NCBI GenBank assembly: GCA_964542165.1 | Contig: CAZITQ010000015.1 | Span: forward strand, 3,047-67,046 | Direction of reading: 5' to 3' | DNA from: an uncultured Rickettsiales bacterium | Lineage (GTDB): Bacteria; Myxococcota_A; UBA796; UBA9615; CAYRNR01 | Length of the DNA: 64,000 bases | Shown here: in pieces, positions 2,939 through 62,785 of the stretch | Layout of the letters: the number at the start of each line of letters is the position of its first letter | How positions within the stretch are numbered: the stretch's first letter is position 1 | Made by a program: the position numbers and the translations under genes | The notes under the pieces: model-generated | Seen by the model: the letters and a program-made list of their open reading frames with translations, nothing else | Database searches by the model: none | What the model was told of the DNA's origin: nothing

Positions 2939-3112
2939 CGCAGCCCGGGACCCCGACGTCAGCGAACGGGGTCGACGAGGGTTGAGAGGAGATTGTATGC
3001 ACGGGGGGCTGGGAGATTGAAGCCCCATTGCGCGCGTGTCGCCCGAAGCGCGCGCAGGATTGCCCAAAGACGCCGTGACTCCTACCATGGGACGTTCGTT
3101 CGGAGGTCGTGG

Positions 3113-4546: not shown

Positions 4547-4562
4547 GACCGTGGAGGTGAAC

Positions 4563-28522: not shown

Positions 28523-30721
28523 TCACGGAAGGGTGCGCGCCACCCGAAATCCGAGCTCGTCCGACTGGGACTCCGGTGCCAGACGCGTCCGGTGGGCGAG
28601 GCGCAGGTAGGACGGCACGGAGAGGTGGGTGCCCCCGCGGCTGACGCGACGGGTACCCGTCTCCGGGCCGACGGGATCGGTCACCGGCGAGTTGCCCAGA
28701 TCGGCCACGTAGACGTCCCAAACCCACTCCGAGGCGTTGCCGGTCATGTCGTACAGGCCGAACCCGTTGGGAAGAAAGCTGGCCGCCGGGGCCAGGTCCG
28801 CGTGGCCGTCCTCGCAATCGAAGGGGGTCAGCGCGGGGCTCTGGGCCACGGCGGTGGCGTCGGCGACGTTGCCGTAGAGGCAGAGTTCGGCGTCGCGGCT
28901 GGTACCCGCGTAGCGGTCGTCTCCGCCGGCGCGGGCGGCGTACTCCCACTCGGCCTCGGTGGGTAGCCGGTAGCCGGTGGCCTCGTGGCGCCACTCCACG
29001 AACGAGCCCTTGATCACGTAGGCGGCGGCCAGCCCCTCGGCCTTGGAGAGCCGATTGCAGAACGTCACCGCGTCGTACCAGCTCACCCGGGTGGCCGGCA
29101 GCGACCGCTGGAGGGTGCGGGGCGGGCGCTTTGCCATCACCTCGGCCCACAGCCCGCGGGTCACCTCCCTGTCCCCCAGCAAAAAGGCGCTCCCCAGGGT
29201 GACCTCGTGGAGGTTCTCGTCATCCGCCCGACCGGCCTCGCCCTTCGGGCTGCCCATGGGGAAGCTGCCTCCGGGGATCGGCGTCATGGCGAGCCCGAAT
29301 CGGGATGTGACCTCCCCCTGCCAGCGGGCCACGTCCTCGGGGTCGAAGGTCTCGATCGGGGTGGCCTCGCCCGTTGCTCCGTCCACCGGCCGCGTCTCGC
29401 CGCCGGTGGTCCGCCCCGCCTCGCGCAGCGCCCACCCGCCCCCGGCCACCAGCGCGATTCCCGCCAGTCCGACGACCGCGATCGCCACCGCCCGCCAGGG
29501 GCTGGGTCCCGGCCGCTCGAGCCCGTCTTCGGTCTCCAGGCTGGTGAGGCGACCCTGGGCGGGTACCGGGCCCTGCAGCGCGGCGGGCGAGGGCCCGTCG
29601 GCGGGGGTGGAACCCGAGGGCGTCGGCTCCCGTTCGCCGGCCCCGGTGGGCATGTAGTCCATGGTCCGGTCCACCGGGGAGAACTCCCCGGGGGAGGGCC
29701 CGTCACCCCCGGCGTCGTCCGCCGGCGGCCGGAGGGTCTGCTCTTCGGGACCGGCGGCCGAGGCCAGGTTGGGGGTAGCCTCGCCGGAGTCCGCGCCCAC
29801 CTCGCCATCGCCCATCCACCCGGAGACCCACCCGCCGAGTTCGAGATCGCCCGCCAGCCGGTCCCGCACCGCGAGGAGGTCCCCCCGCATCGCCGCGGCG
29901 TCCGGGTAGCGGTCCATGGGGTCCTTCTGAAGGGCCCTTGCGACCACCGGCGCCATCTCGGGCCATCGCCCCTCGACCCGCATCAGCGCCTCGGAAGTGT
30001 CGGCGCGGGCGATGCGGCCGAGCACATGGAACAGCTGGGTGCACTCGAACACCACCTCGCCGGTGATCATCTCGGCGATCACCGAGCCGAGGCTGAACAG
30101 GTCCGACCGGTGGTCCAGGGGCAGACCATCCACCTGCTCGGGGCTCATGTAGACCGGCGTGCCCTTGGTGATGCTCGCCGTGGTCGTGTGGAACAGGTTG
30201 ACCTGTGACTTGGCGATCCCGAAGTCCATGATCTTGACCCGCCCCTCGCGGGTGATCATCACGTTCCCCGGTTTCAGGTCCCTGTGGACCAGGCGCAGGT
30301 CGCGGCCGTCCTCGTCCACGGCGGCGTGGGCGTACTCGAGGCCGTCGCAGATCTGGATCGCGATCTCCACGACCGGTGCGAGGGGGAGAGGGCCCCGATC
30401 CCGGGCTCGCCGCAGGACCCTGCTCAAGGTGTGACCGTCCACGAACTCCATGGACAGCACGTAGACGTCGTCGATGTTCTCGAACTCGTAGATCTCGACC
30501 AGGTTCTTGTGGCGCAGGTACCCCCCGACCCGGGCCTCGTTGATCAGCGCCTGGACCAGCTTCTCCTCCCTCGAGACGTGGGGCAGGATCTGCTTGAGGG
30601 CGACCTCCTTGCGGAAGCCCATCGCACCTGCGCGGACGGCGCGGAACACCCGGGCCATGCCGCCGGTGCCCACCTCCTCCAGCAGCACGTACTTGCCCAG
30701 TCTTCGCGTCTCGGGGTCCAC
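28523..30721 (-). CDS. Ser/Thr protein kinase fused to a C-terminal FGE-sulfatase (SUMF1/formylglycine-generating-enzyme-like) domain via a TM segment
   Basis: Kinase motifs GTGGMARVF, HRDLKPGN, DFGIAK, SPEQ. Pro/Gly-rich linker and a hydrophobic helix (AVAIAVVGLAGIALVAGGGW). The FGE-sulfatase region reads RVSWYDAVTFCNRLS, YRLPTEAEWEYAARAG, GLYDMTGNASEWVWD, RVSRGG. Confidence 0.9.
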   Translation of the reverse strand: MDPETRRLGKYVLLEEVGTGGMARVFRAVRAGAMGFRKEVALKQILPHVSREEKLVQALINEARVGGYLRHKNLVEIYEFENIDDVYVLSMEFVDGHTLSRVLRRARDRGPLPLAPVVEIAIQICDGLEYAHAAVDEDGRDLRLVHRDLKPGNVMITREGRVKIMDFGIAKSQVNLFHTTTASITKGTPVYMSPEQVDGLPLDHRSDLFSLGSVIAEMITGEVVFECTQLFHVLGRIARADTSEALMRVEGRWPEMAPVVARALQKDPMDRYPDAAAMRGDLLAVRDRLAGDLELGGWVSGWMGDGEVGADSGEATPNLASAAGPEEQTLRPPADDAGGDGPSPGEFSPVDRTMDYMPTGAGEREPTPSGSTPADGPSPAALQGPVPAQGRLTSLETEDGLERPGPSPWRAVAIAVVGLAGIALVAGGGWALREAGRTTGGETRPVDGATGEATPIETFDPEDVARWQGEVTSRFGLAMTPIPGGSFPMGSPKGEAGRADDENLHEVTLGSAFLLGDREVTRGLWAEVMAKRPPRTLQRSLPATRVSWYDAVTFCNRLSKAEGLAAAYVIKGSFVEWRHEATGYRLPTEAEWEYAARAGGDDRYAGTSRDAELCLYGNVADATAVAQSPALTPFDCEDGHADLAPAASFLPNGFGLYDMTGNASEWVWDVYVADLGNSPVTDPVGPETGTRRVSRGGTHLSVPSYLRLAHRTRLAPESQSDELGFRVARTLP

Positions 30722-36739: not shown

Positions 36740-37283
36740 CGGGGCGAATGATGGAGGGGAGGCGCGGATCGGTCAAGGAGCTGACTGTGGCCGGCGGCAG
36801 CGAACGGGGGGCTGGTGAACGGGAGGGGGCTGCGGTCGGGTTGTTCGGCCGTGCTTCCCCGGTGCCGGCGGTTGGCCGAACATCGAGTGCGAGCGCCGGC
36901 CGCCCTGGTCGCCGAGGGGGGGGCGCTCCGCCTCTCTGTCGCTGCGTCGCCGAGTCCTCGCGGTGATCGGAACCCAGATTGCGAACGAGTCCCGGACGCA
37001 AGTGGGATGCAGCGCCTTTTACGTTCGGCTACGGCCCCCCCCCACGGCTCTGGGTCGGGCGGCCTCGGACTGGAGGCGGGGGCCGCCGGCGGACGAGGTC
37101 CGCGCTGGACGAGAGTACGAACATGGAGTGCTCGACGCACCTGGGGGCGGCGTCATTGCTCCGCTCGCGCCGGGGAGGGGGCGATTTGGGTACGGAATCC
37201 GGGGTGGCACAGGCAGCTCGCTGCCTGTGGGGAGCGGCGCCATCGGTGCGCGCGCGTCGATGTGGGAACGAGGGAGTGGAAAA

Positions 37284-37357
37284 TGGAGGCGCCGACCGGA
37301 TTCGAACCGGTGATGGGGGCTTTGCAGGCCCCTGCCTTACCACTTGGCGACGGCGCC
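37284..37357 (-). tRNA. tRNA-Cys (GCA), CCA encoded
   Basis: Reverse complement reads GGCGCCG TC GCC AAGTGGTAA GGC A GGGGC CTGCAAA GCCCC CATC ACCGG TTCGAAT CCGGT CGGCGCC T CCA. Clean cloverleaf, anticodon GCA, discriminator U73 as expected for tRNA-Cys. Confidence 0.93.
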
Positions 37358-37589
37358 CCGGAGAGGGTGATCCGAGCGGATCGGACAGAGGATACGCCTG
37401 GAAGTCCCGCTGTCAAGGGTCCGGAGGAGCGGTGGGTTGCACGGGTGCCGGTGAGGTCCGCGGGGTTGCACCCATGCCCGTCGCGACCGGAGGCCAGCCG
37501 CCGCCGACCGTACTCGACACCCCTGCGATGCGATATCAACGGGCTGGTAGACTGACACTCCGTGGACGCACGCGGGGATCGACCTGACG

Positions 37590-39563
37590 ATGGATGTCAT
37601 CTTCCGAAAGATGCCCTTCGCTCACCCGCCAGAGCCGGGCGAAGGGGAGCTTCTACTGTGTCCCGAGCCCCGTCATGCCGACCGGCGGCGCGCCCTTTCC
37701 CGCTTGATCGTCGAACGCGGCGTGGAGACGTTGCTCGAGGGACCGGGGCAGATTCGCGCACTGGTCGTGGCCTGCTACCCGACCCTGGATGACATGCTGG
37801 CTTGCGAACTCGCCCAGCGGTGTCTGGCGGGCGGGGACAACCCCGCGGGGATAGCTCCCTTCACGACCTACGCCGCCCTTCTTCGGGAGGGACACACTCC
37901 CGACGGCGTTCCTGCCCTGAACTCATTGCAAGGCGTGTTTCAGGCCATCTCCTCTCTACATCCACCCGAGGCGGACGATCCGGACAGCTGGCCCCCCTTC
38001 CTGGAGGCCTGGGCTCCCCTGGCGGAGGCCCTGTTCCAGGGGGCCGAGACGGGGGCGGATCCGTTTCACGACGATCTGGTCTCCAGCCATCCGGAGTTGC
38101 AGCGGGCCCTCGCGTTCCTCGCCCAGGACAAGGACGTGTTCCTCCAGGACGTGGCCCGCGGCGAGCGTGTCACCGGGCGGCTCCCCGGCATCGATGGGGA
38201 CGCCACGGCCCTCTTCCTCCGGGAGCCCCGCAGCGCCTTGTTCAAGCTCTGGAGCCGGCGGGAACCCGAGCCCCGTGGAGGAAGTCCGGTCACGCTCCTG
38301 GGCGTCAGCTGGCGCGCGGGACAGTGGACGTTCTCGACGGATCCCGCCCGGAAGATCCCGCTGCTGGAACTTCATGCACGGCTCCAGGAGGCGGAAGACC
38401 TGGCCACCTCCGAGGGCGAGGAGTACCAGGAGTGGTTCGACGGCGCTCCTTTCGACCACACCCTCCTCTCTGGGCCGGAGGACGGCTCGCGGATGGACGA
38501 CGACGCGATCCTGGCTGTGGCACGGGCGTGGCTCGCTCCACCGAGGGAGCAGCCGCGATTTGCCCCACACGGACTGCTCGCAGCCGCCGGCCTCGCGGGC
38601 CTCGCTCTCCTGGTCGGCCTCGCGATCTGGCGACCCTGGAGCGAACCGGATATGCCCCCCGAGCCCGATCCACCCGTGGAGGAGACCCAACCCCTTGGAG
38701 CGGAACCGGTGGATGAGTTCGGGGGGGTCCGAGGGGCTCGTCGGGCGGACGGGAAGACGTCGCCCGAGTTGGGCATCGTCGAGTACGGCAAACAGTACCT
38801 TCTGTTGATCGGCATCAGCGACTACCCGGAGGACAGCGAGTGGTGGGACCTGAAGGGGGTGAGCGCGGACCGGCGGGCTCTCCACAAGGTGCTGACCGAG
38901 CGTTACGTCTTCGACGAGGTAGTCCAGCTCTACGACGAGAGCGCGACCCTGGACGACATCTCCGGAGAGCTCGAGAGGCTAGCCACCCTCACGGGCAACG
39001 AGAACGACAGCCTCCTGATCTACTTCGCCGGGCACGGCTACCACGACCGAATCGCCCAAACCAGCTACTGGATTCCGCACGACGGCGGCCCTGTCTCGTC
39101 CGAGGCCAAGGGCTGGTTGTCCCACGACAAGGTTCAGGGGTACCTGGACACGATGGCGTTCCGTCACGTGTTCGTGATCAGTGACGCTTGCTTCTCGGGC
39201 GTGTTCGTCAAGAAGGGCCGCCAACTCCACGAGCGGACACCGCATGCCCTGGTCGAGGCGTACGGGAAGCGGGCTCGCCAGGCGCTTCTCTCGGGGCTCG
39301 ACGAGCCCGTCGCCGACGCCGATTCCGGGGGTCTGAGCCCCTTCGCCCGCCCCCTGGTGAGCATCCTGCGCGGTCACGGAGGTCGGGTGCTCGACGCGCG
39401 GGACGTGGGCCATCACGTGCGCAAGGCGATGGAGGAGGCGGAGGTACGGCAGACGCCGTTGTTCGACGAGATCCCCAACACCAACCACCTCGACGGCGCC
39501 ACCTACCTCTTCATCCGCCAGGCCCCGGAGGGAGCCTCCCCGCCCGAAGACCTGCACGAGTGA
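37590..39563 (+). CDS. Membrane-anchored caspase-like (peptidase C14) protein with ~325-aa orphan N-terminal domain
   Basis: C-terminal domain reads KQYLLLIGISDY...SLLIYFAGHGYHD...HVFVISDACFSGVF, with the His/Cys dyad in canonical contexts. Single hydrophobic helix GLLAAAGLAGLALLVGLAIW at about residues 328-347. The N-terminal region has no motif I recognise. Confidence 0.8.
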   Translation: MDVIFRKMPFAHPPEPGEGELLLCPEPRHADRRRALSRLIVERGVETLLEGPGQIRALVVACYPTLDDMLACELAQRCLAGGDNPAGIAPFTTYAALLREGHTPDGVPALNSLQGVFQAISSLHPPEADDPDSWPPFLEAWAPLAEALFQGAETGADPFHDDLVSSHPELQRALAFLAQDKDVFLQDVARGERVTGRLPGIDGDATALFLREPRSALFKLWSRREPEPRGGSPVTLLGVSWRAGQWTFSTDPARKIPLLELHARLQEAEDLATSEGEEYQEWFDGAPFDHTLLSGPEDGSRMDDDAILAVARAWLAPPREQPRFAPHGLLAAAGLAGLALLVGLAIWRPWSEPDMPPEPDPPVEETQPLGAEPVDEFGGVRGARRADGKTSPELGIVEYGKQYLLLIGISDYPEDSEWWDLKGVSADRRALHKVLTERYVFDEVVQLYDESATLDDISGELERLATLTGNENDSLLIYFAGHGYHDRIAQTSYWIPHDGGPVSSEAKGWLSHDKVQGYLDTMAFRHVFVISDACFSGVFVKKGRQLHERTPHALVEAYGKRARQALLSGLDEPVADADSGGLSPFARPLVSILRGHGGRVLDARDVGHHVRKAMEEAEVRQTPLFDEIPNTNHLDGATYLFIRQAPEGASPPEDLHE

Positions 39564-39636
39564 TCCGGAGGCGGACCGGACTGCCCTCGGAGGGATTGGG
39601 GTATGCTCCTCGGGGCAGACCCAGGGGGCGCGGCAG

Positions 39637-42123
39637 GTGACCACGGACCGGACCATCGACCTCACGGTCAGGCGGGGATTCCCCCAGCCAATCGCCGGTG
39701 CCTGGCACCGGGTCGCGGTGGCCTCCTCGGACGCGGAGCGGATGCGGCACGCCACGGCCGCGCTCGAGGTAATCCTCCGGACGCTGTCGTCGATGGCGCT
39801 GGCCGACTACCTGCGGGGAGGGCCCGTTCCCCGGGTAGAAGAGGCTCTGGCGCCTCTGTCTCGACCGTCCCTGGGCCACTGGGCCCAGCTCCTGCGGGTG
39901 CTGATCCATGCCCTCGGGGATCGCAACGAACCACAACCGTTCCTCCCCGACCTCGTCGGGTGGTACCGGACGCCCACGGGCCGGCCCACCGCCGAGGCGC
40001 GACGGATCGACGACCTGATCGCGTTGCGCAACCGTGTGGCCCACGACGGACCGTCCACCAGCCCCGAGGACACCGCGGCACAACTGAAGCACCTGATGGA
40101 GGAGAGCCGAGCCCTCCTCAGGGGTCTGCGTTGGCTCGCGGGGTACCGACTCGTTCGCGTCCTGAGCCAGCAACCCCTGCGACAGGGGGGGACCGAGGGC
40201 AAGATCCAGGTGTATGCGGGGGCCGAAGCGCTTCCGGAACCGCGCAAGGTCCGCTGGGACGCCCGGCTGATCCATCAGGTCGTGTACCTGGTCGAACCCG
40301 GCGGCAGGGAGGCGCTGGAGGTCTGCCCGTTCCTGCAGGTCCTCCACGACGAGGCGACACGCCAGGAACGCCTGTTCCTGCTGAGAAAGGTACGTCGCGG
40401 CAAGGAGATCGAGCTCGTCTCCGACGCGACCGGAGCCCGGACCGTCGGCGGCGTGCCCGGAGACGACGGACAGATCCCGTTCGACCGCTGGCTGGACATG
40501 CGCAGCGAGATCGACCTCTGGCAGCCCAACGCCGCTCCCGACGGCGGACTCGCTGCTCCCGAATGGGCCGTGGACGCCTCGTCCAACGAGCTTCTCGACG
40601 ATCGATTCGAGGTCCTGGAACTCCTCGGTGAGGGGGGGATGTCCCAGGTCTACCGGGTCCGCGATCGCTGGTTCGACGACGAGGTCGCCCTCAAGATCCT
40701 CCGCTCGGCCCTCTCCGACGACGAGGCGTTCCGCGAGCGCTTCCGCCGGGAGGCTCGAACCATGGCGGGCCTCCAGCACGAACACGTGCTGGCGTTGCAG
40801 GACGTGGGGCAGCTCGGCGACGGTCGCCAGTTCCTGCGCATGCCCGTGGTTCCCGGCGGGACCCTCGAAGACCGGATCCGGCCCGGTGGTGTCGGGGAAT
40901 CCGAGGTACGCGAGCTGGCGAGCCAGATGCTGGCCGCACTCGAGTACCTCCACGGTCGGGGGATCATCCACCGGGACGTCAAGCCCTCGAACTTCCTGCT
41001 CGACACCAACGGGGGCATCAAGCTCGCCGACTTCGGGATCGCCCTGGGGCCGGACGACCTGAGGCTCACGCGTACCCTGGAGCGTCTGGGCTCGCTGGCG
41101 TACGCGTCGCCAGAACAGAGGCTCGGCAAGGCCCTGTCGGATCGGTCGGACGTGTACAGCCTCTCGGTGGTCCTGCACGCCCTGGTGACCGGCGAGGAGG
41201 CCACGGACCAGCCAGGGGAGGCGCTCGAGGGAGAGCTGGGAGAGCTGATCCGCCGGATGGCCTCCCGTGCCCCGTCGAAACGCCCCTCGGCTCGCGAGGC
41301 TCGCTTGTTGCTCACGGAGGATCTGGAGTTCGAGGGCCCGGAAAAGCGCTCCCCGTCCCATCCGGCCGTCTCCGATCCACGCGGGGGGACAGCCAACGAA
41401 GCCGTAGGCGCGTCCACCGGGCCTGCGGGACGCTCAGCCCGTCGTCGCTCGCTGGGGTGGGTCGTTGTTATCGCCGCCACCGTGGCGCTGGTGGTCGCCG
41501 CGATCGTTGGTCCCCGCGGGCGCAACCGGACCGAAACCAGCCCCATCAACGACGAGGAGGCCGCGGCCATCTCGGAGGGGGCCCCCTGGACCCTGACCTT
41601 CCATATGGCGGAGGTGGGCAGCAGGGAGCTTCGCGCCCTCTCGCCGGGCGGTGAGAACACCGTTGAGAAGCCCAACTGGACCGGCCACTTCGTGGACCTC
41701 GAGGATTCCCAGGGCCAGCGGCTCTCCCTGCGGCCGCGCCCGGAGCTAGCGGGGGCGCCGTCGCTGTGGCTCGGCGACGACGAGGTGCATCTCCACTGGT
41801 GTCGCTGCATAGACGGCTGTGAGGCCGGCGAGGAAACGTCCTGCTATGACTTGATGGCGCAGATCCGTGTCGAGGTCGTCGCGTCCAGAATGGAGGCGCC
41901 CCAGCTCGAACCCGCCCTCGGGGTGGGCGAGCTCGTCCTCCTGGAGCGGGAGCAGGTGCGGACCCTGCCCGGGGAAACGACGAGCGAGAACGTCACGAAT
42001 GTCGCACCGCGGGGTACGCACCGTCTGAGGGCGCTGGTCGGGTGTGTCGATCCGGTTGTCGCGACCGCTGGGAACTGTGAAGCCCCAGGCCACACCATCG
42101 AACTCGACTGGAGCGTGCCGTGA
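39637..42123 (+). CDS. Transmembrane Hanks-type Ser/Thr kinase with N-terminal helical RNxxxH (HEPN-like) domain and extracytoplasmic C-terminal domain
   Basis: GTG start. Kinase motifs GEGGMSQVY, VALKIL, HRDVKPSN, DFGIA, SPEQ at about residues 324-580. TM helix LGWVVVIAATVALVVAAIVG at about 606-625. The N-terminal four-helix-like region contains LRNRVAHDG (codons 40027-40044). Confidence 0.85.
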   Translation: MTTDRTIDLTVRRGFPQPIAGAWHRVAVASSDAERMRHATAALEVILRTLSSMALADYLRGGPVPRVEEALAPLSRPSLGHWAQLLRVLIHALGDRNEPQPFLPDLVGWYRTPTGRPTAEARRIDDLIALRNRVAHDGPSTSPEDTAAQLKHLMEESRALLRGLRWLAGYRLVRVLSQQPLRQGGTEGKIQVYAGAEALPEPRKVRWDARLIHQVVYLVEPGGREALEVCPFLQVLHDEATRQERLFLLRKVRRGKEIELVSDATGARTVGGVPGDDGQIPFDRWLDMRSEIDLWQPNAAPDGGLAAPEWAVDASSNELLDDRFEVLELLGEGGMSQVYRVRDRWFDDEVALKILRSALSDDEAFRERFRREARTMAGLQHEHVLALQDVGQLGDGRQFLRMPVVPGGTLEDRIRPGGVGESEVRELASQMLAALEYLHGRGIIHRDVKPSNFLLDTNGGIKLADFGIALGPDDLRLTRTLERLGSLAYASPEQRLGKALSDRSDVYSLSVVLHALVTGEEATDQPGEALEGELGELIRRMASRAPSKRPSAREARLLLTEDLEFEGPEKRSPSHPAVSDPRGGTANEAVGASTGPAGRSARRRSLGWVVVIAATVALVVAAIVGPRGRNRTETSPINDEEAAAISEGAPWTLTFHMAEVGSRELRALSPGGENTVEKPNWTGHFVDLEDSQGQRLSLRPRPELAGAPSLWLGDDEVHLHWCRCIDGCEAGEETSCYDLMAQIRVEVVASRMEAPQLEPALGVGELVLLEREQVRTLPGETTSENVTNVAPRGTHRLRALVGCVDPVVATAGNCEAPGHTIELDWSVP

Positions 42124-45100
42124 GATCCGCGGTCGGCGCCCTCTACCTCGCACTGCTCGCCGTGGTTCTGGTGATGGCGGACGATGCGGTCGCCGAGGAC
42201 CTCGACGGGGACACAGTGGACGACAGCGAGGACGCCTGCCCCCCCGGATCGGGTACCCACGGAGATACCGTGAAGTTCAACGGCTGCCCCGGAAAGGCGG
42301 TCTACCGGGCGGCATCGCTCGCGAAGGATTTTCCCCGGGCGAGGGTGAGCGTCCGCGGCGAGTCGCCCAAGCCGGCGGCCGTTGGGGTGGGCCTTGACCC
42401 GGCCAAGCCCGGAGAGGCCCGCCGAATCCGCTTCCACGCCTTTCTCGACGAGGGGGATCACTCCCGGCGCTGGTCCGCCGCCGAGCTGGCCGGGCCTCGA
42501 TATCGCGAAGGGGGGATCGAGCTGGACTTCAAGCCGGCGGCCCCGCCGGAACACATCGTGGTGATCGTCGACGGCGGCGGTGCAGAGGTGACCGTCGACG
42601 GCGAACCCGCAGTCGACCTGACCCGAGGAGGACGGGGTGTGCGGCACACCCGTGCCGGGGGGGAGAGGCGCCTCGACGTGGCCGTGGCGACACCGGATGG
42701 CGAGGCCACCTGTGCGGTGGAGCTGGAGCGCGGCTCAGCCAGGCGCCTCGAGGGGCAGTGCCTGCTGTCCTGGGGCGGACGGGCCGACGAGCTGGAGGTC
42801 CGATTCTCGCCCCAGATGCTCGAGGGATCTCATGTCTCGATGGACCGGCTCCGGGAATACGACGAGGAACTCGACAACAGTCCACAAGTGACCTACGTCG
42901 TCACGGTTCAGGCCCTGTGGGCCCCGGAGGACGACTCGGCTCCCGCACGGGCCCAGGCCGAGGAACTCGCCGCGCAGGGTTGCACCGCTGCGGAGGGGCT
43001 CGGGGGCATGTTGGGCCAGTGGTGGGAGGCACGTCGGCAGCGCGAGAATCTGATCCAGGAGCGGGCAGCACTGCTCAAGGAACGCAAGCAGTCCTTCGGC
43101 GATTCCGCCTCGTCGATCATGCTCGAGGTCGGATTCGAATCGGACGTCCAGCCCTTCGACGTGCCAGGCTGGCCCCCGGCATGGGCTCGGAGCGGGGCTC
43201 GGAGCGGCGAGCTGGCGGCATTCCACCGGTTGCGGATCGAACGCGCGTACTCCGAGGACGTCCAAGTCATCCGCAACACGTACTCCGCGGCAACGTGGGA
43301 GGCCTCCTCGGGTCTCGCGAATCTCCGGGCAGAACTCCTTCCCCGGTTGCGGGACGCGGCGGAGTGCTCGCCGTCCGCCGCCGACGCTCCGCTGCTCCTC
43401 GAGCTCATGTCGATGCAGCTGGACCAGGCGGACGAGGACTGGTTGGAGGCCTATGACGCGTACGGTGAGCTCGAAGATGCGTTCGATCGTGGGGATATCG
43501 ATACCCTTCCGGAACCGCCCGGGAGGGACTACAGCGCTCTGATCGCGACCGGCGAACGCCTGGTCTCCCTGGAACCCGCCCCCGTCCGCGAGCTCCCCGA
43601 GGCGCTGTGGCTCCTGAGCTTCGCCTATCACGACTCGTTGAGTGACCAGTGGGAGTCGGGCGACGAACGAGCGCTGACGTACTATGAGCGGCTGGCGGCC
43701 CTCGATGGGCCTTCGCACCTGGTCGATGGAGGGCACTTCCTCGCCGGAGACCTGCACTTCGATTCGTATCGCTGGGACGAGGCGATCTCCCACTACGATG
43801 GGATCTTGGACGAACGCGAGTTCGGCCCGTACTTCGAACGGGCGCTGTACAAGAGGGCGTGGGCCAAACTGCGGTTGGGACGGCTCGACGAGGCCGTCGC
43901 GGATTTCGTCGCACTGCACGACCACGCCGAGCAGGCGAGGCTGGCCACCGGCCGGACGACGTTCTGGCAGGGCGAGGCCGAGCGGGCGCTGGCGCTCCTC
44001 CTGTACGAACGAGCGGAGACTCGGTCGGACGCGGCGGGTGAAGCGTTCGCGGAACTCGATCCCGAGACCATGCCTTATGCCGTGGACGTGGCCCAGGAGC
44101 TGGTGGCGCTGTACCTGAAGCTCGGCCGCCGGGAGGCCGCCCTGGCGGGGGAACGCTGGCTCCTGAGCGCGGCGGCGCTGGCTCCCGAGGCGCCGGCGCG
44201 TCAGCGGCGGATCCTGGAGCTGCTCCGGGGCGCCGAGAGCCCTGACGAAGCACAGATCACCCGCGCCATCGAAGGGCTCTGTCTCGACTACCGGCGAGGC
44301 GGCGCCTGGTGGGACGCGAACCGCGGACGGCGGGACGCGGTCGCCGACGCGCAGACCTGGGACAGCCCGGGAACGGATCCGTGCGGTCCGTTGATCCGGG
44401 CGAGGGACGAGGACGAGCGCGCCGAGGCCTACGCACGCGCGGCGGAGTTCCAGGAGGCCCTGCGACATCGGCAACCCCTGGAATCTGCCGCCACGCTCCG
44501 GGCGAGGCGCGTCGAAGCCCTCGTGACGGCGGGCGAGTGGTTCCTCGCCGCCGGGGAGGCACAGGTCCTGGTCGACCGCTCGAACTCGCGGGACGACCTG
44601 GCGGGCAGCCTGGCCCTGCTGGTGCAGGCCCTCCGTGAACCGGCAAGGGAGGAGGTCCGACGGCTGAGGGCCGAAGGGGGGCCGCTCCGGGAATGCGTGG
44701 CGCGCCCGGGACGGCCTGCGGAGTGTCCGTCGGCCGCACCGATGTCGGAACACGCGTATCGCTTCGTGGGTGCAGTCGAGGGGCTCTTGCAACTCCCGCA
44801 ACGGGACCTGCTGCGCGCCCCCGACCACCTGCTCGCGGGCGAGCTGTACCTTCACCACCGGTTGCTCGACGAGGCGCACACGGTCTTCGCGGACCTGGGT
44901 GGCTCGCCCAGCATCGAGGGCATACTCGCGGACGTATATCTGGGCTACGTCCTGTGGATCGCCGGGGACCTTCCACGACTGTACGACCATTGCCGCATGG
45001 CCCTCGAACGCGGCGAGGGCGCGCTCCGTACCGACGACGTGTGGACCGCCGCGCGAGGCGAGATCGCGAGGCTGATGTTCGCGGTCGAGTTGGCCGCCGA

Positions 45101-45542
45101 GGGGGCCGTGGGCACTCCGGATGCGGGATGGGCGTTCGAGGTCCTCGCCCGCCGCTACGGTGCCCTCCACCTCGACGCCACGAGGGCCGTGGTCGTCCTG
45201 GAGGCGCCCCCCGCGCTCCGAGGACGTATCGACACGTACTGGGATGGCCACCCGCTCGCGGGAGACCCCCGCGAGGAGGGACCGTCCGTACGGCTCTTCG
45301 AGGGGGCAACGACCCCGGGGAGCCACACCCTCGCGCTCCAGCTGGATCGGGGCAGCGACAGGATCCAGGCGCCCTACTCGTTCATCTGCGAGGAGGGAGG
45401 GATGACGGTGATCCGGATCCAGGCCACACCTTCCGGTTTCACCTTCCTCGTGGAGTCCGTCCGGGTCGAGGACTTCTACGGCGGGGATCTGGATCCGGAG
45501 ACCCGGGAACTCGCGGCCCCCTTCTTCGAGGGCCTGCTGTAG
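42120..45542 (+). CDS. Large secreted TPR-like repeat protein with thrombospondin-type-3-like acidic motif
   Basis: The GTG start overlaps the kinase stop as GTGA. Signal peptide MRSAVGALYLALLAVVLVMA. Acidic motif DLDGDTVDDSEDACP. TPR-like helices (e.g. YFERALYKRAWAKLRLGRLDEAVADF). Beta-rich C-terminal end. Confidence 0.7.
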   Translation: MRSAVGALYLALLAVVLVMADDAVAEDLDGDTVDDSEDACPPGSGTHGDTVKFNGCPGKAVYRAASLAKDFPRARVSVRGESPKPAAVGVGLDPAKPGEARRIRFHAFLDEGDHSRRWSAAELAGPRYREGGIELDFKPAAPPEHIVVIVDGGGAEVTVDGEPAVDLTRGGRGVRHTRAGGERRLDVAVATPDGEATCAVELERGSARRLEGQCLLSWGGRADELEVRFSPQMLEGSHVSMDRLREYDEELDNSPQVTYVVTVQALWAPEDDSAPARAQAEELAAQGCTAAEGLGGMLGQWWEARRQRENLIQERAALLKERKQSFGDSASSIMLEVGFESDVQPFDVPGWPPAWARSGARSGELAAFHRLRIERAYSEDVQVIRNTYSAATWEASSGLANLRAELLPRLRDAAECSPSAADAPLLLELMSMQLDQADEDWLEAYDAYGELEDAFDRGDIDTLPEPPGRDYSALIATGERLVSLEPAPVRELPEALWLLSFAYHDSLSDQWESGDERALTYYERLAALDGPSHLVDGGHFLAGDLHFDSYRWDEAISHYDGILDEREFGPYFERALYKRAWAKLRLGRLDEAVADFVALHDHAEQARLATGRTTFWQGEAERALALLLYERAETRSDAAGEAFAELDPETMPYAVDVAQELVALYLKLGRREAALAGERWLLSAAALAPEAPARQRRILELLRGAESPDEAQITRAIEGLCLDYRRGGAWWDANRGRRDAVADAQTWDSPGTDPCGPLIRARDEDERAEAYARAAEFQEALRHRQPLESAATLRARRVEALVTAGEWFLAAGEAQVLVDRSNSRDDLAGSLALLVQALREPAREEVRRLRAEGGPLRECVARPGRPAECPSAAPMSEHAYRFVGAVEGLLQLPQRDLLRAPDHLLAGELYLHHRLLDEAHTVFADLGGSPSIEGILADVYLGYVLWIAGDLPRLYDHCRMALERGEGALRTDDVWTAARGEIARLMFAVELAAEGAVGTPDAGWAFEVLARRYGALHLDATRAVVVLEAPPALRGRIDTYWDGHPLAGDPREEGPSVRLFEGATTPGSHTLALQLDRGSDRIQAPYSFICEEGGMTVIRIQATPSGFTFLVESVRVEDFYGGDLDPETRELAAPFFEGLL

Positions 45543-46578: not shown

Positions 46579-47223
46579 ATGGAGTTCAACGCCGAGAAGC
46601 TGCTGATGGACCTCTTCCTCTCGGTGGGCGCCAAGTGGGTGTTGTGGCTGCTCATCGTCCTGTCGGTCCTGCTGGTGGTGATCGTGGTCGAGCGCTTCAT
46701 CTTCTTCATGCGCAACCGCGCGGACTTCACCCGCCTGTCCGTGACGGTCAACGAGCTGATGGCATCGGGGGACCTGGGCAGGTTCCAAAAGGCCATCGAA
46801 CCGTTCACGGGGGTCGAGGCCCTGGTCCTGCGGCGCTCCCTGCAGTCGGTGAGCCGGGGGGCGGAGTCGGTGGAAGAGGTGATGGACGGGGTCCTGTCGA
46901 TGGAGCGGGTGCGGATGGAGCGCGGCCTGACCTTCCTGGGCACGGTCGGCGCCAACGCGCCGTTCATCGGCCTGCTGGGCACCGTGCTGGGCATCATCCG
47001 CGCCTTCAGGGACCTGGCCGGTTCCATCGGAGAGGCCCAGGGGGCGTCGGCGGTGATGGCCGGCCTCTCCGAGGCCCTGGTCGCCACGGCAGCGGGGCTC
47101 TTCGTGGCCATCCCCGCCGTGGTCGCCTACAACTACTTCCAGCGCCATATCAAGGCGGTCATCAGCAACGCGGGGAGCATGAACCGCTTCGTGCTCTCGC
47201 AGATCCGCGGCAACGGGAGCTGA
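46579..47223 (+). CDS. exbB: MotA/TolQ/ExbB proton-channel protein
   Basis: Three TM helices. Conserved C-terminal core LGTVGANAPFIGLLGTVLGII...GLSEALVATAAGLFVAIPAVVAYNYF. Confidence 0.9.
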   Translation: MEFNAEKLLMDLFLSVGAKWVLWLLIVLSVLLVVIVVERFIFFMRNRADFTRLSVTVNELMASGDLGRFQKAIEPFTGVEALVLRRSLQSVSRGAESVEEVMDGVLSMERVRMERGLTFLGTVGANAPFIGLLGTVLGIIRAFRDLAGSIGEAQGASAVMAGLSEALVATAAGLFVAIPAVVAYNYFQRHIKAVISNAGSMNRFVLSQIRGNGS

Positions 47224-47229
47224 CCGACG

Positions 47230-47690
<461 letters not shown>

Positions 47691-47691
<1 letters not shown>

Positions 47692-48542
47692 TGGTCCAGG
47701 GAGGCCAGCTCCGCGTGATCGAGGGCGGCCAGGAGCCGGGCGATCCCGGTCCGGGTGGCGACCAGGCCCCGCAAGAGGAGCGCGCGGCAGCTCCGGTACT
47801 CCCGATCATCCCGCCTCCCAGCTACGCCGCCTTGTGGCTGATCCCCGCCGCGCTGTTCTCGCTGCTCCTCCACGGGGCACTCCTCTGGTTGGCCCTTCGC
47901 GCTCCCGAGCTCATCAGGGAGCGGGAGGACACCATCGTCCAGATGCTGGTGATCGAGACCCCGCCCGAGGTGGAAGAGGTCAAGGAGGTCCTGCCGGAGG
48001 AGGAGCTGCCCGAGGAGTCGACGACGCCCGAGCCCGAGGTCGTCGACTACCAGGACGCCGTGGTCGCCGATGCGCCTCCGCCGGATGCCCAGCCGTCCGA
48101 GGAGCAGCCGGCGGCACCCGTGTTCGGCGTCAGCATGTCGTCGACGGTGTCGGGGGGATCGAGCTGGGGACTTCAGGTGGGCAATACCGTCGCCATCAAG
48201 CCCGAGGACTCGGCGCAGGTGGACGATCCCTCGGACCTGGAGGCCCCCGTGGTGGCCTACCAGTTCATCGAGCGTGAACCGGTGGTGATCAAGCGCTTCG
48301 AACCCCCCTACCCCGACGGACCCAAGCAGGCGGGCATCGAGGGGGACGTGCTGCTCTACCTGACCATCGACCACGACGGCAACGTGACCGAGGCCAAGGT
48401 GGTCCGGGGACCGCACCCCGAGTTGAACGAGGCCGCACGCAAGGCCATGTTCAAGCACCGGTTCAAGCCCGCGATGAAGGGTGGCAAGCCGGTGACCGTC
48501 GAGCGCTTCCCCTACCAGTTCACCTGGATCATCGAGGAGTGA
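47691..48542 (+). CDS. tonB: TonB-family energy transducer
   Basis: The ATG overlaps the exbD stop (TGATG). One TM helix (LWLIPAALFSLLLHGALLWLAL), a Pro/Glu-rich spacer and a C-terminal TonB_C motif set (PPYPDGPKQAGIEGDVLLYLTIDHDGNVTEAKVV...FKPAMKGGKPV). Confidence 0.85.
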
Positions 48543-48601
48543 CCGCCCTGGCGCGTACGCGTGCGCTGGGGGACAATGGGGCGCTCTGGCGCGTCGTGCC
48601 C

Positions 48602-51589
48602 ATGCTGTACCGATTCCTGCCGATCCTGGTGTTCGCGTTGGTCCTCGGGCCGCGTGGCGCGTGGGGGCAGGAGGGGGACCAACCCGACGAAGAGGCGGAA
48701 GACACGGGCAGCGCGCTGCCTGTGGGCGCCGAGGCGGAGCCGGTCTGGCCCGTGCTTCCACCGGTGCTTCTCGAGCGCCCCGATCCCGTCTTCCCCGACG
48801 AAGCCCTCACCGCGGGGATCGAGGGGACGGTCGTGCTCCGCCTGGACGTGGCCGAGGACGGGACCGTCTCTACCGTCACGGTCGTCCGGGACCCGGGTCA
48901 CGGCCTGGCCGCGGCGGCGGAGGTCGCCGCGAGGGCCTCACGCTACGAGCCCGCCAACCAGCGGGGCCTCCCGGTGCCATTCACCGACCTGTACGTCTCC
49001 ATCCCCGTGGACCACCCGGACCTCGAGCCCCCTCCCCTCCCCACCGGCGAGATGGCCGACGTCCTGACCCGGGCGCCCGTGCCCGTGGAGACGCCCGCGG
49101 CGGTCTACCCGAAGGAGCTGAAGGAGGCCGGCGTCGAGGGCGTGGTCCAGATGGAGATCCTCATCGACGCCCGGGGCGAGGTCACCAACGTGCGGCTACT
49201 GGGTTCGGCGGGGAGCGCCTTCGACGTGGCGGCCCGGGACGCGGCCTGGACGTTCCGCTTCGAGCCCGGGTACGCCGGCGACATCCCGGTGCCTGTGAAC
49301 ATCACCTACGACTACGTGTTCGAGATCGAGGAGCAGGTGGTCGAGACGGTCGCCGAGACCGGGTACGACGAGGTGGACCCCGACGGCCCCGAGAACCTCG
49401 TGGGGATCGTCCGCGAGCGGGGCACACGCAACCCGATGCCGGAGGTCGAGGTCCACATCGAGGAGTTCGACCTCAGCGTGACCAGCGGCCCCGACGGGCG
49501 CTTCGCGTTCCGCGGGATCCCGGTGGGCACCTGGCACATCCTGATCCTGGCGCCCGGGTACGAACCCTTCCGGACCGAGGAGGACATCGTCCAGGGTCAG
49601 CTCACCGACGTGATCTACTTCGTGCGGCCCTCACCGGTGGGCCTCAACCGCACGGTGGTCCGGGTCAAGAAGGAGCGCAAGGAGGTCAGCCGGACCACCC
49701 TGACGATCGAGGAGATCCAGCAGGTCGCCGGGACCTTCGGCGACCCCATCAAGGTGGTGCAGAACCTGCCGGGCGTGGCCCGCAGCCCCTTCGACTTCGG
49801 CCTGCTGGTCGTCCGAGGCTCCGGCCCGGAGGACACCGGCGAATACGTGGACGGGATCCGGGTCCCGCTGCTCTACCACTTCGGCGGATTCCGCTCGGTG
49901 ATCACGCCGATCATGATCGACTCCATCGACTTCTACCCCGGCGGGTACAGCGTTCGATGGGGCCGCACCATGGGCGGTGTGATGAACGTCACGACCCGCC
50001 GGGAATGGCCCGACCAGGTCCACGGGCTCGCGCGCGTCGACCTGATCGACGCCGAGGCGGCGCTCATCGGCCCGTTCAAGAAGGACGGCGAGAAGGTCGG
50101 CGGGTTCGGCGTCGCCGGGCGTCGGAGCTACATCGATCTCATGCTCCCGGCCCTGGCGCCGCCCTCGGTGGACCTGACCAACACGGTCCTGCCCCAGTGG
50201 TGGGACGCCCAGATCAAGCTGGCGGTGTCCCCCTCCCCGCGGGTCGACCTGTGGACCTACATCTACGCCAGCGACGACCAGACCTCCACCACCAGCGATC
50301 GGCCCAGCAGCGCCCAGTTCGCCGACTCGGGCGGATTCGCGGGGTTCCGCACCAGCTTCTTCCGGGCCACGGCGGGCGGCGCCCTGCGTCCCCACGACGC
50401 CCTGAATGTGGACTGGACCTTCGGCTACAGCTACGACGCGATCCGGATGTCTCTGGGTACGGCCTTCGGAGGCGGGACGGCGTCGGACTTCTATTACGGC
50501 CGTGCCGAGGCCACCTGGGCCCCCAGGGAATGGGGATCGGCCCACCTGGGGATCGACTACGCCGGCGGCAAGGACCGGTTCGAGATCTTCACCACGGCCA
50601 CCGAGCAGTTGCTGGCCGGTGACCCGACCCAGGAGTCAGAGACCCTGGTGATCGTGGGCGACATCACCGGCCACGCGCCGGCGGTCTACCTCGAAGGGGT
50701 GTTCACCCCGCTGCTGGACGACCGGTTGAAGATCATCCCCGGGATCCGGTTCGACTACTACTGGCTGAAGCAGGGCACGAGCTTCTCCAGTTGGGATCCG
50801 CGGCTGGCCGTGCGGGCCCAGGTGCACAAGAACACGGTGCTCAAGGGCGCCGTCGGCCTGTTCCACCAGAACCCGCAGCCCTGGGAGTTCTTCGAGGGCA
50901 TCGGCAACCCCGACCTGGACCCGGAGAGTTCCCCTCAGGTCGTCGTCGGGATCGAGCAGCAGTTCACCCCCTTCCTCGGCCTGGACGCCCAGTTCTTCTA
51001 CAAGTCGATGGACAACCTGGTCGTCACGGTCTTCGACGAGGTGTCGTCCGCCGAAGACGTGTGGCGCAACGGCGGGGTCGGACGGGTGATCGGCGGCGAG
51101 TTCTTCCTCCGCTGGAAGCCCCACCGCAACTTCATGGGCTGGATCGCCTACACCGTGTCCAACAGCACCCGGCGGGATCAGCCCGGGGACGACTGGTACC
51201 TGTTCGAGTTCGACCAGCCCCACATCCTCGATGTGGTCGCCAGCTACCAGTTCCCCTACGAGATCACCGTCGGGTTCCGGTTCCGACTGGTCTCCGGCAA
51301 CCCCACGACCCCCTACATGGGCGCCATGTTCGACTCGGACGTCCCGGGGTACATGGGCCTGTTCGGGGAGTACAACTCGCGGCGAATGCCCCCCTTCCAC
51401 CAGCTGGACGTTCGCTTCGAGAAGGCGTTCATCTTCCGCCGCTGGCGGCTCCAGGCCTACCTGGAGATCATGAACCTCTACAACCGCCAGAACCCGGAGT
51501 TCGAGATCTACAACTTCGACTACACGGAGAAGGACGCCCTCAACGGATTGCCCTTCATCCCCAACCTCGGCCTGAGGGCGGAATTCTGA
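48602..51589 (+). CDS. TonB-dependent receptor-like outer-membrane protein with two N-terminal TonB_C-like modules and a CarboxypepD_reg-like domain
   Basis: Signal peptide MLYRFLPILVFALVLGPRGAWGQ. TonB_C-like 1 reads PVFPDEALTAGIEGTVVLRLDVAEDGTVSTVTVV...YEPANQRGLPVP. TonB_C-like 2 reads AVYPKELKEAGVEGVVQMEILIDARGEVTNVRLL...FEPGYAGDIPVP. Carboxypeptidase-regulatory-like segment VSGPDGRFAFRGIPVGTWHILILAPGYEP. Plug segment GDPIKVVQNLPGVARS...LVVRGSGPEDTGEYVDGIRV. Long beta-barrel ending ...NLGLRAEF. Confidence 0.85.
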   Translation: MLYRFLPILVFALVLGPRGAWGQEGDQPDEEAEDTGSALPVGAEAEPVWPVLPPVLLERPDPVFPDEALTAGIEGTVVLRLDVAEDGTVSTVTVVRDPGHGLAAAAEVAARASRYEPANQRGLPVPFTDLYVSIPVDHPDLEPPPLPTGEMADVLTRAPVPVETPAAVYPKELKEAGVEGVVQMEILIDARGEVTNVRLLGSAGSAFDVAARDAAWTFRFEPGYAGDIPVPVNITYDYVFEIEEQVVETVAETGYDEVDPDGPENLVGIVRERGTRNPMPEVEVHIEEFDLSVTSGPDGRFAFRGIPVGTWHILILAPGYEPFRTEEDIVQGQLTDVIYFVRPSPVGLNRTVVRVKKERKEVSRTTLTIEEIQQVAGTFGDPIKVVQNLPGVARSPFDFGLLVVRGSGPEDTGEYVDGIRVPLLYHFGGFRSVITPIMIDSIDFYPGGYSVRWGRTMGGVMNVTTRREWPDQVHGLARVDLIDAEAALIGPFKKDGEKVGGFGVAGRRSYIDLMLPALAPPSVDLTNTVLPQWWDAQIKLAVSPSPRVDLWTYIYASDDQTSTTSDRPSSAQFADSGGFAGFRTSFFRATAGGALRPHDALNVDWTFGYSYDAIRMSLGTAFGGGTASDFYYGRAEATWAPREWGSAHLGIDYAGGKDRFEIFTTATEQLLAGDPTQESETLVIVGDITGHAPAVYLEGVFTPLLDDRLKIIPGIRFDYYWLKQGTSFSSWDPRLAVRAQVHKNTVLKGAVGLFHQNPQPWEFFEGIGNPDLDPESSPQVVVGIEQQFTPFLGLDAQFFYKSMDNLVVTVFDEVSSAEDVWRNGGVGRVIGGEFFLRWKPHRNFMGWIAYTVSNSTRRDQPGDDWYLFEFDQPHILDVVASYQFPYEITVGFRFRLVSGNPTTPYMGAMFDSDVPGYMGLFGEYNSRRMPPFHQLDVRFEKAFIFRRWRLQAYLEIMNLYNRQNPEFEIYNFDYTEKDALNGLPFIPNLGLRAEF

Positions 51590-55555: not shown

Positions 55556-55664
55556 GACGAGCGAGGGAGGACGGCCGAGCGCCGTCCGGTGCGAACGAGA
55601 CGGAGTAACGATCCCGGCGGACGGGCGTCGAGACGCCGCGCCCGCCGGAGAAACGGGAAGAGTG

Positions 55665-57584: not shown

Positions 57585-57632
57585 CGCCCTCTCGGGACGG
57601 ACAGAAACGACCCCATCGCCTGCTGGAGGACG

Positions 57633-60600: not shown

Positions 60601-60854
60601 CCACTGACCAGTGCGACATGTACCAGCAGGGGCTGCAGATTCACGCGTACGAGAACTACCTGTTCCCCACGCTGGACGCGTACCGCGAGGTGCTGAGCGC
60701 CGCCGCCGAGGCCAACGTGTACAACGAGTACACGGTCAAGGCGATGGTCACGTTGGGTGAGCTGGCTCCGGACGAATTCCCACCGACGGTGGAGGAGATA
60801 CCGGAACCCGGGTTCATCACCAGCATCTGGACCACCATGGACTACGCCCAGTGA
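57633..60854 (+). CDS. GltD/NfsD (AgmU)-like large periplasmic TPR protein
   Basis: Signal [30 protein letters not shown]. 1073 aa of TPR-like repeats (e.g. [45 protein letters not shown]). Position after the GltC-like gene. Confidence 0.78.
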
Positions 60855-60871
60855 GGCAGAGGAGACCAGCC

Positions 60872-62785
<1,914 letters not shown>

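Follow-up and report, generated by a model that had tools for sequence, protein, structure and literature searches.

A candidate HEPN-like/kinase receptor paired with a secreted protein, beside a separate membrane-anchored C14 peptidase, in an uncultured bacterium

The window studied here is a stretch of 64,000 nucleotides (nt) from an uncultured Rickettsiales bacterium (contig CAZITQ010000015.1, positions 3,047 to 67,046). Three consecutive genes on its forward strand encode a caspase-like peptidase (gene 1), a membrane-spanning kinase (gene 2), and a large secreted protein (gene 3). We lean toward reading them as two independent units, namely an Ire1-like receptor pair made of gene 2 and gene 3, and a separate gene 1 peptidase. 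A first-pass annotation of this DNA had described three co-directional reading frames with a spacer of 73 nt (39564-39636) between genes 1 and 2 and a GTGA overlap between genes 2 and 3, and its coordinates are borne out. All three genes have a GC content at third codon positions (GC3) of 0.83-0.84, which is of the coding type in a window with 69% GC.

37590-39563, forward strand: gene 1, open reading frame of 657 residues
39637-42123, forward strand: gene 2, open reading frame of 828 residues
42120-45542, forward strand: gene 3, open reading frame of 1140 residues

To judge from their sequences, gene 2 and gene 3 are a conserved and translationally coupled pair. The gene 2 stop and the gene 3 start overlap by 4 nt in the GTGA at 42120-42123. 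The pair is considered conserved because P0009, the closest relative of gene 2 (47% identity, full length), likewise overlaps a gene 3 homolog by 4 nt, this time through ATGA (L016-L018). That homolog, a protein of 1187 residues, is collinear with gene 3 (27% over 1037 residues, E=5e-51) and shares its signal peptide and D-x-D...CP motif. Of the other family members, P0009 alone has the ectodomain of gene 2, with all six cysteines kept.

Gene 1 is not part of this conserved pair, and is an independent neighbor. Its closest homologs, P0001 (66% identity) and P0002 (62%), each have a divergent trypsin-like gene on one side and, downstream, a DsbA-like gene, and tblastn of the two loci found neither the gene 2-like N-terminal domain nor gene 3. 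A kinase near P0001, on the opposite strand, was rejected as a gene 2 homolog, its similarity being confined to the kinase core. Another relative of gene 1, P0004, has no informative neighbors. At no other locus examined do homologs of gene 1 occur together with those of gene 2 or gene 3. Among eleven loci with the N-terminal module of gene 2, a caspase lies beside it in this window only, and none is found within 10 kb on either side of the P0009 pair. P0002 and P0009 share the same two samples, with coverages of 9.4 vs 8.6 and 9.6 vs 9.9, and their contigs (GC 0.70, tetranucleotide r of at least 0.95) closely resemble each other and the window. A single relative is thus the probable source of both, with the gene 1 ortholog at one locus and the orthologs of gene 2 and gene 3 at another. 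Since its orthologs sit elsewhere in relatives, the position of gene 1 next to gene 2 is lineage-specific. The annotation's single three-gene envelope-spanning module, caspase included, does not survive this comparison: the homologs do not co-occur elsewhere, gene 1 is unlinked in relatives, and the only neighborhood that they keep is the gene 2-gene 3 pair. The caspase-kinase-TPR trio would then be an accident of gene order, and effort spent on a three-gene model needless.

Gene 2 is predicted to be a multidomain protein that crosses the membrane once, with the following features:

39637-40146, forward strand: HEPN-like helical bundle (residues 1-170; AlphaFold2 model and motif conservation)
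39766-39780, forward strand: Ex3R motif (E44-x3-R48)
40027-40044, forward strand: RNxxxH motif (RNRVAH, R131-H136)
40147-40536, forward strand: all-beta domain (residues 171-300; AlphaFold2 model; always accompanies the HEPN-like bundle)
40606-41208, forward strand: Hanks-type Ser/Thr kinase core (residues 324-524; Pfam Pkinase)
41443-41523, forward strand: transmembrane helix (residues 603-629; hydropathy)
up to 42123, forward strand: predicted periplasmic cysteine-rich domain (residues 630-828)

The kinase domain scores 143 bits with PF00069, against a cutoff of 31.7, and has all the expected motifs: GEGGMSQV, VALK (K353), HRDVKPSN (HRD at 445-447), DFG (465-467) and SPE. It looks like an active kinase as far as its sequence goes. 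These motifs, RNRVAH (residues 131-136) and the transmembrane helix are all found where the first-pass annotation had put them. The N-side flank of the helix has a charge of +4, a distribution consistent with an N-in/C-out orientation. The topology that had been proposed is sound for the whole trio, with an N-in/C-out gene 1 protein, an outside domain with six conserved cysteines in gene 2, and a signal peptide in gene 3. The top NCBIfam and PDB matches of gene 2 are the kinase domains of PknB, StkP and PknA. With the bacterial receptor Ser/Thr kinases (PknB/Stk1, and the myxobacterial kinases with FGE-sulfatase, TPR or WD40 tails), gene 2 shares the kinase core, the single transmembrane helix and a variable sensor or repeat domain. 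Unlike PknB-type receptor kinases it has no PASTA domains, and its equivalog score is 221 vs a cutoff of 450. PknB-type kinases also begin with the kinase domain, whereas the gene 2 family has a module of 300 residues ahead of it.

This module defines a large family. An exhaustive phmmer search with residues 1-320 of gene 2 gave 489 representatives of clusters at 50% identity at E<=1e-3, with 82 of them at <=1e-30, and in almost all 489 the module is at the N-terminus. The view of the domain as an orphan was rejected as an artifact of a word-index search, which had returned 1 match. Pfam, NCBIfam and PADLOC contain no model for the 300-residue module, the beta domain matches nothing in Pfam or among PDB sequences, and Foldseek with the two-domain model against the PDB found nothing significant. 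A Hanks kinase follows the module at about residues 310-320 in 87 of the top 150 members, and the C-terminal parts vary (FGE-sulfatase, TPR, WD40 or unknown). A transmembrane helix comes after the kinase in 42 of the 85 aligned kinase-fused members, and directly after the module in most kinase-less ones. Such placement suggests that the module is the cytoplasmic N-terminal end of membrane receptors. A scan with a six-sequence alignment of the N-terminal domain recovered 8 loci. Two scans of GTDB genomes, including one for gene 3, gave no matches. The family is absent from the 2013 catalog of HEPN domains, in which KEN-kinase fusions are listed in eukaryotes only (PMC3710099), and no description of a bacterial HEPN-kinase fusion was found in the literature searched. 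So far its members have been annotated only as "serine/threonine protein kinase", even though the family is large.

What the helical half of the module might be can be read from its conserved residues and from a predicted structure. AlphaFold2 modeled the module from a 60-sequence alignment with high scores (predicted local distance difference test, pLDDT, 95; predicted TM-score, pTM, 0.94), as a bundle of about 8 helices at residues 1-169 followed by an all-beta domain at 171-300; the bundle alone reaches a pLDDT of 94.6. Although the 60 sequences are only 25-50% identical, R131 is kept in 58, N132 in 48 and H136 in 50 of them, and the R...H pair in 79 of 85 kinase-fused representatives aligned. 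The upstream Ex3R is also conserved (E/D in 49/60, R in 54/60). In the HEPN superfamily, Rx4-6H is located where core helix 3 ends and the loop to helix 4 begins, and its R is usually followed by N, D or H. In many families helix 2 carries an Ex3[KR] upstream of it, and helices 2 and 3 are commonly separated by inserts (PMC3710099). The gene 2 model fits all four points. RNxxxH ends the helix 119-137, which a loop (138-142) connects to a final long helix (143-163); E44x3R48 is part of another long helix (32-58); and the helices at 65-110 form the insert.

Sub-threshold profile matches cluster on the same superfamily. When 32 bundle sequences were compared with Pfam at E<=10, the matches, all sub-threshold, fell mainly on HEPN families, namely HEPN_RiboL-PSP (13) and HEPN_Swt1 (3), then HepT-like, Abi_C and HEPN_MAE_28990. 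The recurrent ones are centered on the motif region, and in gene 2 itself the match covers residues 114-142, which is that region. The beta domain, used as a control in the same test, gave four unrelated single matches. PADLOC likewise returned sub-threshold matches of the bundles to RTasHEPN and two CARF_HEPN models. Because of the motifs, the helix positions and this concentration of sub-threshold matches on HEPN families, the gene 2 bundle is very probably a divergent member of the HEPN superfamily whose active-site signature is intact. With RiboL-PSP-HEPN, Swt1-like HEPN and HepT (DUF86) it would share an RNxxxH that closes the penultimate core helix, an Ex3R further upstream within a long helix, and the helix 2-3 insert. 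It differs from the HEPN families of Pfam, NCBIfam and PADLOC in that none of them covers it, in its roughly 8 helices, and in that it is always joined to the beta domain. The HEPN-like nature that had been guessed for this N-terminus is thereby backed by motif conservation, by the motif positions in the model and by the HEPN-centered matches; of the profile and structure comparisons, the profiles gave these sub-threshold matches and Foldseek no significant one.

These domains can be put together into a model. Gene 2 would be a bitopic receptor, with the HEPN-like bundle, the beta domain and the Hanks kinase in the cytoplasm, followed by the transmembrane helix and a disulfide-rich periplasmic sensor. 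The gene 3 protein, which is large and secreted and has TPR-like helices and a Ca-binding-like motif, would most likely serve as a co-sensor in the periplasm by binding or modulating the ectodomain of gene 2. An envelope signal would change the oligomeric state of gene 2, and the kinase would then autophosphorylate. The HEPN-like domains would come together as a composite RNase site and cleave RNA in the cytoplasm, and the output may be a stress, growth-arrest or regulatory response. In this scheme we infer the RNase activity, the gating of the HEPN-like domain by the kinase, the contact between gene 2 and gene 3, and the physiological role. HEPN nucleases usually work as dimers, and it is oligomerization driven by ligand that activates receptor kinases. 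The most economical model has a periplasmic signal, sensed by the ectodomain together with the gene 3 protein, drive both kinase activation and the assembly of an active RNase.

The closest parallel is with Ire1 and RNase L. In both, one polypeptide combines a Hanks-type kinase with a HEPN-type R-x4-H domain, as gene 2 appears to do, and Ire1 is also a single-pass membrane protein whose sensor lies on the far side of the membrane. The differences are the order, which is reversed (the HEPN-like domain of gene 2 is N-terminal and the sensor C-terminal), and the additional beta domain between HEPN and kinase. The RNase domain of these eukaryotic proteins, KEN, belongs to the HEPN family (PMC3710099). 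Gene 2 has no KEN or Ribonuc_2-5A match, even at E<=10, and since its HEPN-like domain precedes the kinase and has no sequence similarity to KEN, it was rejected as a KEN-family member. The likeness would be one of logic and not of family membership; it nevertheless suggests activation of a composite RNase site by oligomerization. A wider proposal, which we offer tentatively and would not ourselves bet on, is that gene 2 represents a widespread class of bacterial receptors (at least 489 clusters) in which an outside sensor controls a cytoplasmic HEPN RNase, usually through a Hanks kinase. This would be a counterpart of Ire1/RNase L, assembled independently and in reverse order, with gene 3 recruited in the lineage of gene 2. 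If the N-terminal module is an active RNase, kinase-run transmembrane control of RNA cleavage is not a eukaryotic invention, and if the proposal is true, bacteria have a signaling route from envelope to RNA that bypasses transcription factors.

Several results weigh against the Ire1-like receptor pair. No HEPN profile is significant, the best E-values being 0.004-0.03. Foldseek of the bundle against the PDB gave nothing below E=0.27, and the four HepT-type toxins among its matches, at ranks 5-17 (E 0.6-1.1, TM-score 0.28-0.38), do no better than generic helix bundles. Against BFVD it found nothing significant, and a profile search of the bundle against PDB sequences found no match. As for the pairing, it is known from two lineages only, and neither the GTDB genomes nor the JGI metagenomes scanned yielded any more relatives of gene 3. 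No gene 3-like partner lies beside other members of the gene 2 family, whose neighbors are varied and housekeeping-like. In addition, a weak relative of gene 3, P0007, belongs to a row of TPR proteins with ExbB/ExbD/ExbD after it, and ExbB/ExbD/TonB genes are also found downstream of gene 3, so that a different partner is possible.

Of the competing explanations, the one that holds up best takes gene 2 for an ordinary signaling Ser/Thr kinase acting through phosphorylation only. The bundle would then be a non-catalytic HEPN fold, or an unrelated domain for regulation, dimerization or ligand binding. The missing significant matches to any HEPN family agree with this, as do the housekeeping-like gene contexts, the existence of non-catalytic HEPN domains (PMC3710099), and a kinase-less subfamily that keeps the fold without RNxxxH. 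Yet the joint conservation of RNxxxH and Ex3R is the pattern expected of a catalytic site rather than of a scaffold, and we hold this explanation to be unlikely, if far from negligible. The subfamily in question (P0052, P0053, P0058, P0069, P0071 and P0080) consists of proteins of ~670-735 residues in which the HEPN-like and beta module is followed by a transmembrane helix. They have lost RNxxxH and kept Ex3R, and by their sequences are probably non-catalytic derivatives.

Other features of the family deserve mention. An FGE-sulfatase tail is present on 7 of 45 scanned members. Genes found next to family members encode a DHH phosphoesterase, an amidohydrolase, an S1-domain protein, an NYN protein and, twice, a divergent AAA_23 ATPase. 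The latter, of 582-583 residues and similar to the N-terminal part of SMC/Rad50, divergently adjoins HEPN-like-kinase genes at two separate loci, and is a possible recurrent partner of one subfamily. The NYN-domain protein (a predicted RNase; L029, 5297-6553, forward strand) is encoded ~1.4 kb upstream of P0160 on the same strand, with a GT2 gene and a gene for 141 residues in between.

L026 8219-9967, reverse strand: AAA_23 ATPase
L031 6203-7954, reverse strand / L032 2132-3883, reverse strand: AAA_23 ATPase

It is also conceivable, though we find it improbable, that the trio is one outside-in circuit after all, in which the caspase-like domain of gene 1 processes gene 3 or the gene 2 ectodomain and thereby triggers the kinase/HEPN effector. 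The genes are co-directional, no terminator-like site was found in the sequence between the genes of the trio, including the 73-nt spacer, and each protein puts a domain outside the membrane. The same arrangement is seen in four contigs of the same organism, and a distant gene 1 relative, P0003 (34% identity), is followed 21 nt on by a TPR protein of 899 residues. But the latter is unrelated to gene 3 (E=0.07) and was rejected as its relative, and these genomes abound in TPR proteins and kinases, with at least three kinases and at least five TPR proteins in this window alone. Above all, the closest gene 1 orthologs lie away from those of gene 2 and gene 3, and the latter have no caspase within 10 kb. 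The spacer itself folds no better than its shuffled versions (z=0.02).

The separate peptidase of the preferred two-unit reading has a distinctive architecture:

37590-38549, forward strand: orphan cytoplasmic N-terminal domain of gene 1 (residues 1-~320; conserved among 5 members)
38559-38633, forward strand: transmembrane helix (residues 324-348; sole hydrophobic segment, hydropathy)
38799-39467, forward strand: peptidase C14 domain (residues 404-626; Pfam Peptidase_C14)

PF00656 matches gene 1 at 56.9 bits vs a cutoff of 21.4, and the match covers positions 4-224 of the 233 in the profile. The catalytic dyad, H482 (nt 39033-39035) and C534 (nt 39189-39191), is invariant in all five known members, that is gene 1 and P0001-P0004, the four relatives found by the word-index search. 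Pfam, alignment and hydropathy together confirm the C14 domain, intact His/Cys dyad and single transmembrane helix of the first-pass annotation, and the charge distribution is consistent with N-in/C-out. By these sequence criteria gene 1 is a genuine C14 peptidase, anchored in the membrane with its catalytic domain predicted to lie outside. It shares the p20-type domain and intact dyad with the prokaryotic C14 peptidases (orthocaspase/metacaspase-like), but its layout of orphan cytoplasmic domain, transmembrane helix and outside caspase domain is unusual among them. The N-terminal domain is well conserved in the five members (for instance LVVxxxPTLDDMLA and WxFSTDP), and profile searches of it against Pfam and PDB sequences gave no match. 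An apparent resemblance of PTLDDMLA to MYG1/DHH-type phosphoesterases found no profile support at E<=10, and is not claimed. Gene 1 was also considered as an EACC1-associated caspase, as defined in PMC12642450. This was rejected because it scores 65.5 vs a cutoff of 140 with the EACC1-type caspase model NF047832, and because no small EACC1 gene adjoins it: the space upstream has only the tRNA-Cys gene with its promoter, and gene 2 comes next downstream. In two lineages (L001 3010-8022 and L004 8217-13204), gene 1 orthologs lie between a divergent trypsin-like protease and a DsbA/thioredoxin-like gene, and these flanks could be the real conserved context of gene 1-type proteins.

HEPN nucleases, caspase-like proteases and kinases recur in defense systems, and the locus, or gene 2 alone, might accordingly be read as an abortive-infection or anti-phage system. 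The PADLOC models PD-T4-6, mad6, MkoA and PglW do match gene 2, but the PADLOC and NCBIfam matches are confined to its kinase domain, and with NCBIfam they stay far below the cutoffs (MAD6, 130.6 vs 460; PglW, 83.8 vs 990). As the matches cover the core only, are below cutoffs and come without partner genes, gene 2 was rejected as a PD-T4-6, MADS MAD6 or BREX PglW kinase. In PADLOC, genes 1 and 3 match no defense model beyond the generic caspase one. The flanks of the trio encode PBP1, glycosyltransferases and ExbB/ExbD/TonB, which is cell-envelope housekeeping, and they lack methylase, BREX and other partner genes. A search of 2.9 M viral contigs returned no relatives, and gene 1 has no EACC1-like small gene beside it. 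Nothing in PADLOC, the viral contigs or the gene context points to a defense island, and the link to conflict and abortive infection drawn in the first-pass annotation finds no support here; we give a defense role little likelihood.

Gene 3, the proposed co-sensor, is the least conserved of the three:

start of gene 3, forward strand: signal peptide (residues 1-~25; N-terminal hydrophobic segment, hydropathy)
42198-42242, forward strand: TSP3-like acidic motif (residues 27-41; D-x-D-x-D-x-x-D-D-x-x-D-x-C-P)
43617-44159, forward strand: TPR-like region (about residues 500-680)

It has no Pfam match at E<=0.1, and BamD/YfiO TIGR03302 stays sub-threshold at 15.4 bits vs 81.4. A two-sequence gene 3 profile matches consensus TPR proteins at E=0.0017, over residues ~500-680 only. 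By eye, the first ~270 and last ~120 residues appear non-helical. Of the earlier description, the Sec-type signal and the acidic motif stand, while the "1140 aa of TPR-like helices" shrink to TPR support at about residues 500-680. The word-index search returned only 1 distant match to gene 3. P0007 is a weak relative (25% over 44% of the query, E=9e-8), through the generic TPR part. A reading frame that follows the module in L026 has the same 1187-residue length as the gene 3 ortholog in L016, but was rejected as an ortholog, having no BLAST similarity. Since other members of the gene 2 family have no gene 3-like partner, gene 3 is a lineage-specific addition, and dispensable to that family in general. 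Identities to the homologs assigned to the one putative relative are 27-32% for gene 3, 47% for gene 2 and 62-66% for gene 1, and the faster divergence of gene 3 would fit an exposed sensing component.

That gene 3 instead works with the downstream GT2-ExbB-ExbD-TonB-TBDT (TonB-dependent transporter) genes, as the periplasmic TPR part of a Tol/Exb-type machine whose overlap with gene 2 is incidental, is very unlikely: ExbB/ExbD/TonB genes do start 1 kb downstream (46579-48542), a second TPR cluster lies at 55.6-62.8 kb, and P0007, the sole other gene 3-like match, precedes ExbB/ExbD/ExbD, but this match is weak and over the generic TPR part, and in L016 the true ortholog still overlaps the kinase gene by 4 nt, with no ExbB/ExbD in the 6 kb downstream of it.

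Some neighboring genes are of interest in themselves. Directly after ExbB/ExbD/TonB, a protein of 1016 residues has two TonB_C domains before CarboxypepD_reg, Plug and an outer-membrane barrel; it resembles a TonB-dependent transporter, in an unusual fusion of the C-terminal domain of the energizer to its type of receptor. Further on, three TPR proteins in a row (640, 1073 and 644 residues) occupy a stretch whose GC is lower (0.63-0.66) and whose A>T skew is strong (0.22-0.27) relative to the remainder of the window. L015 has a comparable row of large TPR proteins, with ExbB/ExbD/ExbD after it, and the gene 3 ortholog of L016 weakly matches 58185-59531. Upstream of gene 1, a sigma-70-like promoter directly precedes the tRNA-Cys gene. 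A reading frame of 246 residues there, which public assemblies call a gene, is probably a spurious call; it overlaps the tRNA-Cys gene on the opposite strand and failed the GC3 coding criterion. The window also encodes two more Ser/Thr kinases, one of them with a C-terminal FGE-sulfatase domain.

48539-51589, forward strand: TonB-dependent-transporter-like protein
55662-62785, forward strand: three TPR proteins
37284-37357, reverse strand: tRNA-Cys
36815-37555, forward strand: reading frame of 246 residues, probably spurious
28523-30721, reverse strand: Ser/Thr kinase
2-4648, reverse strand: Ser/Thr kinase

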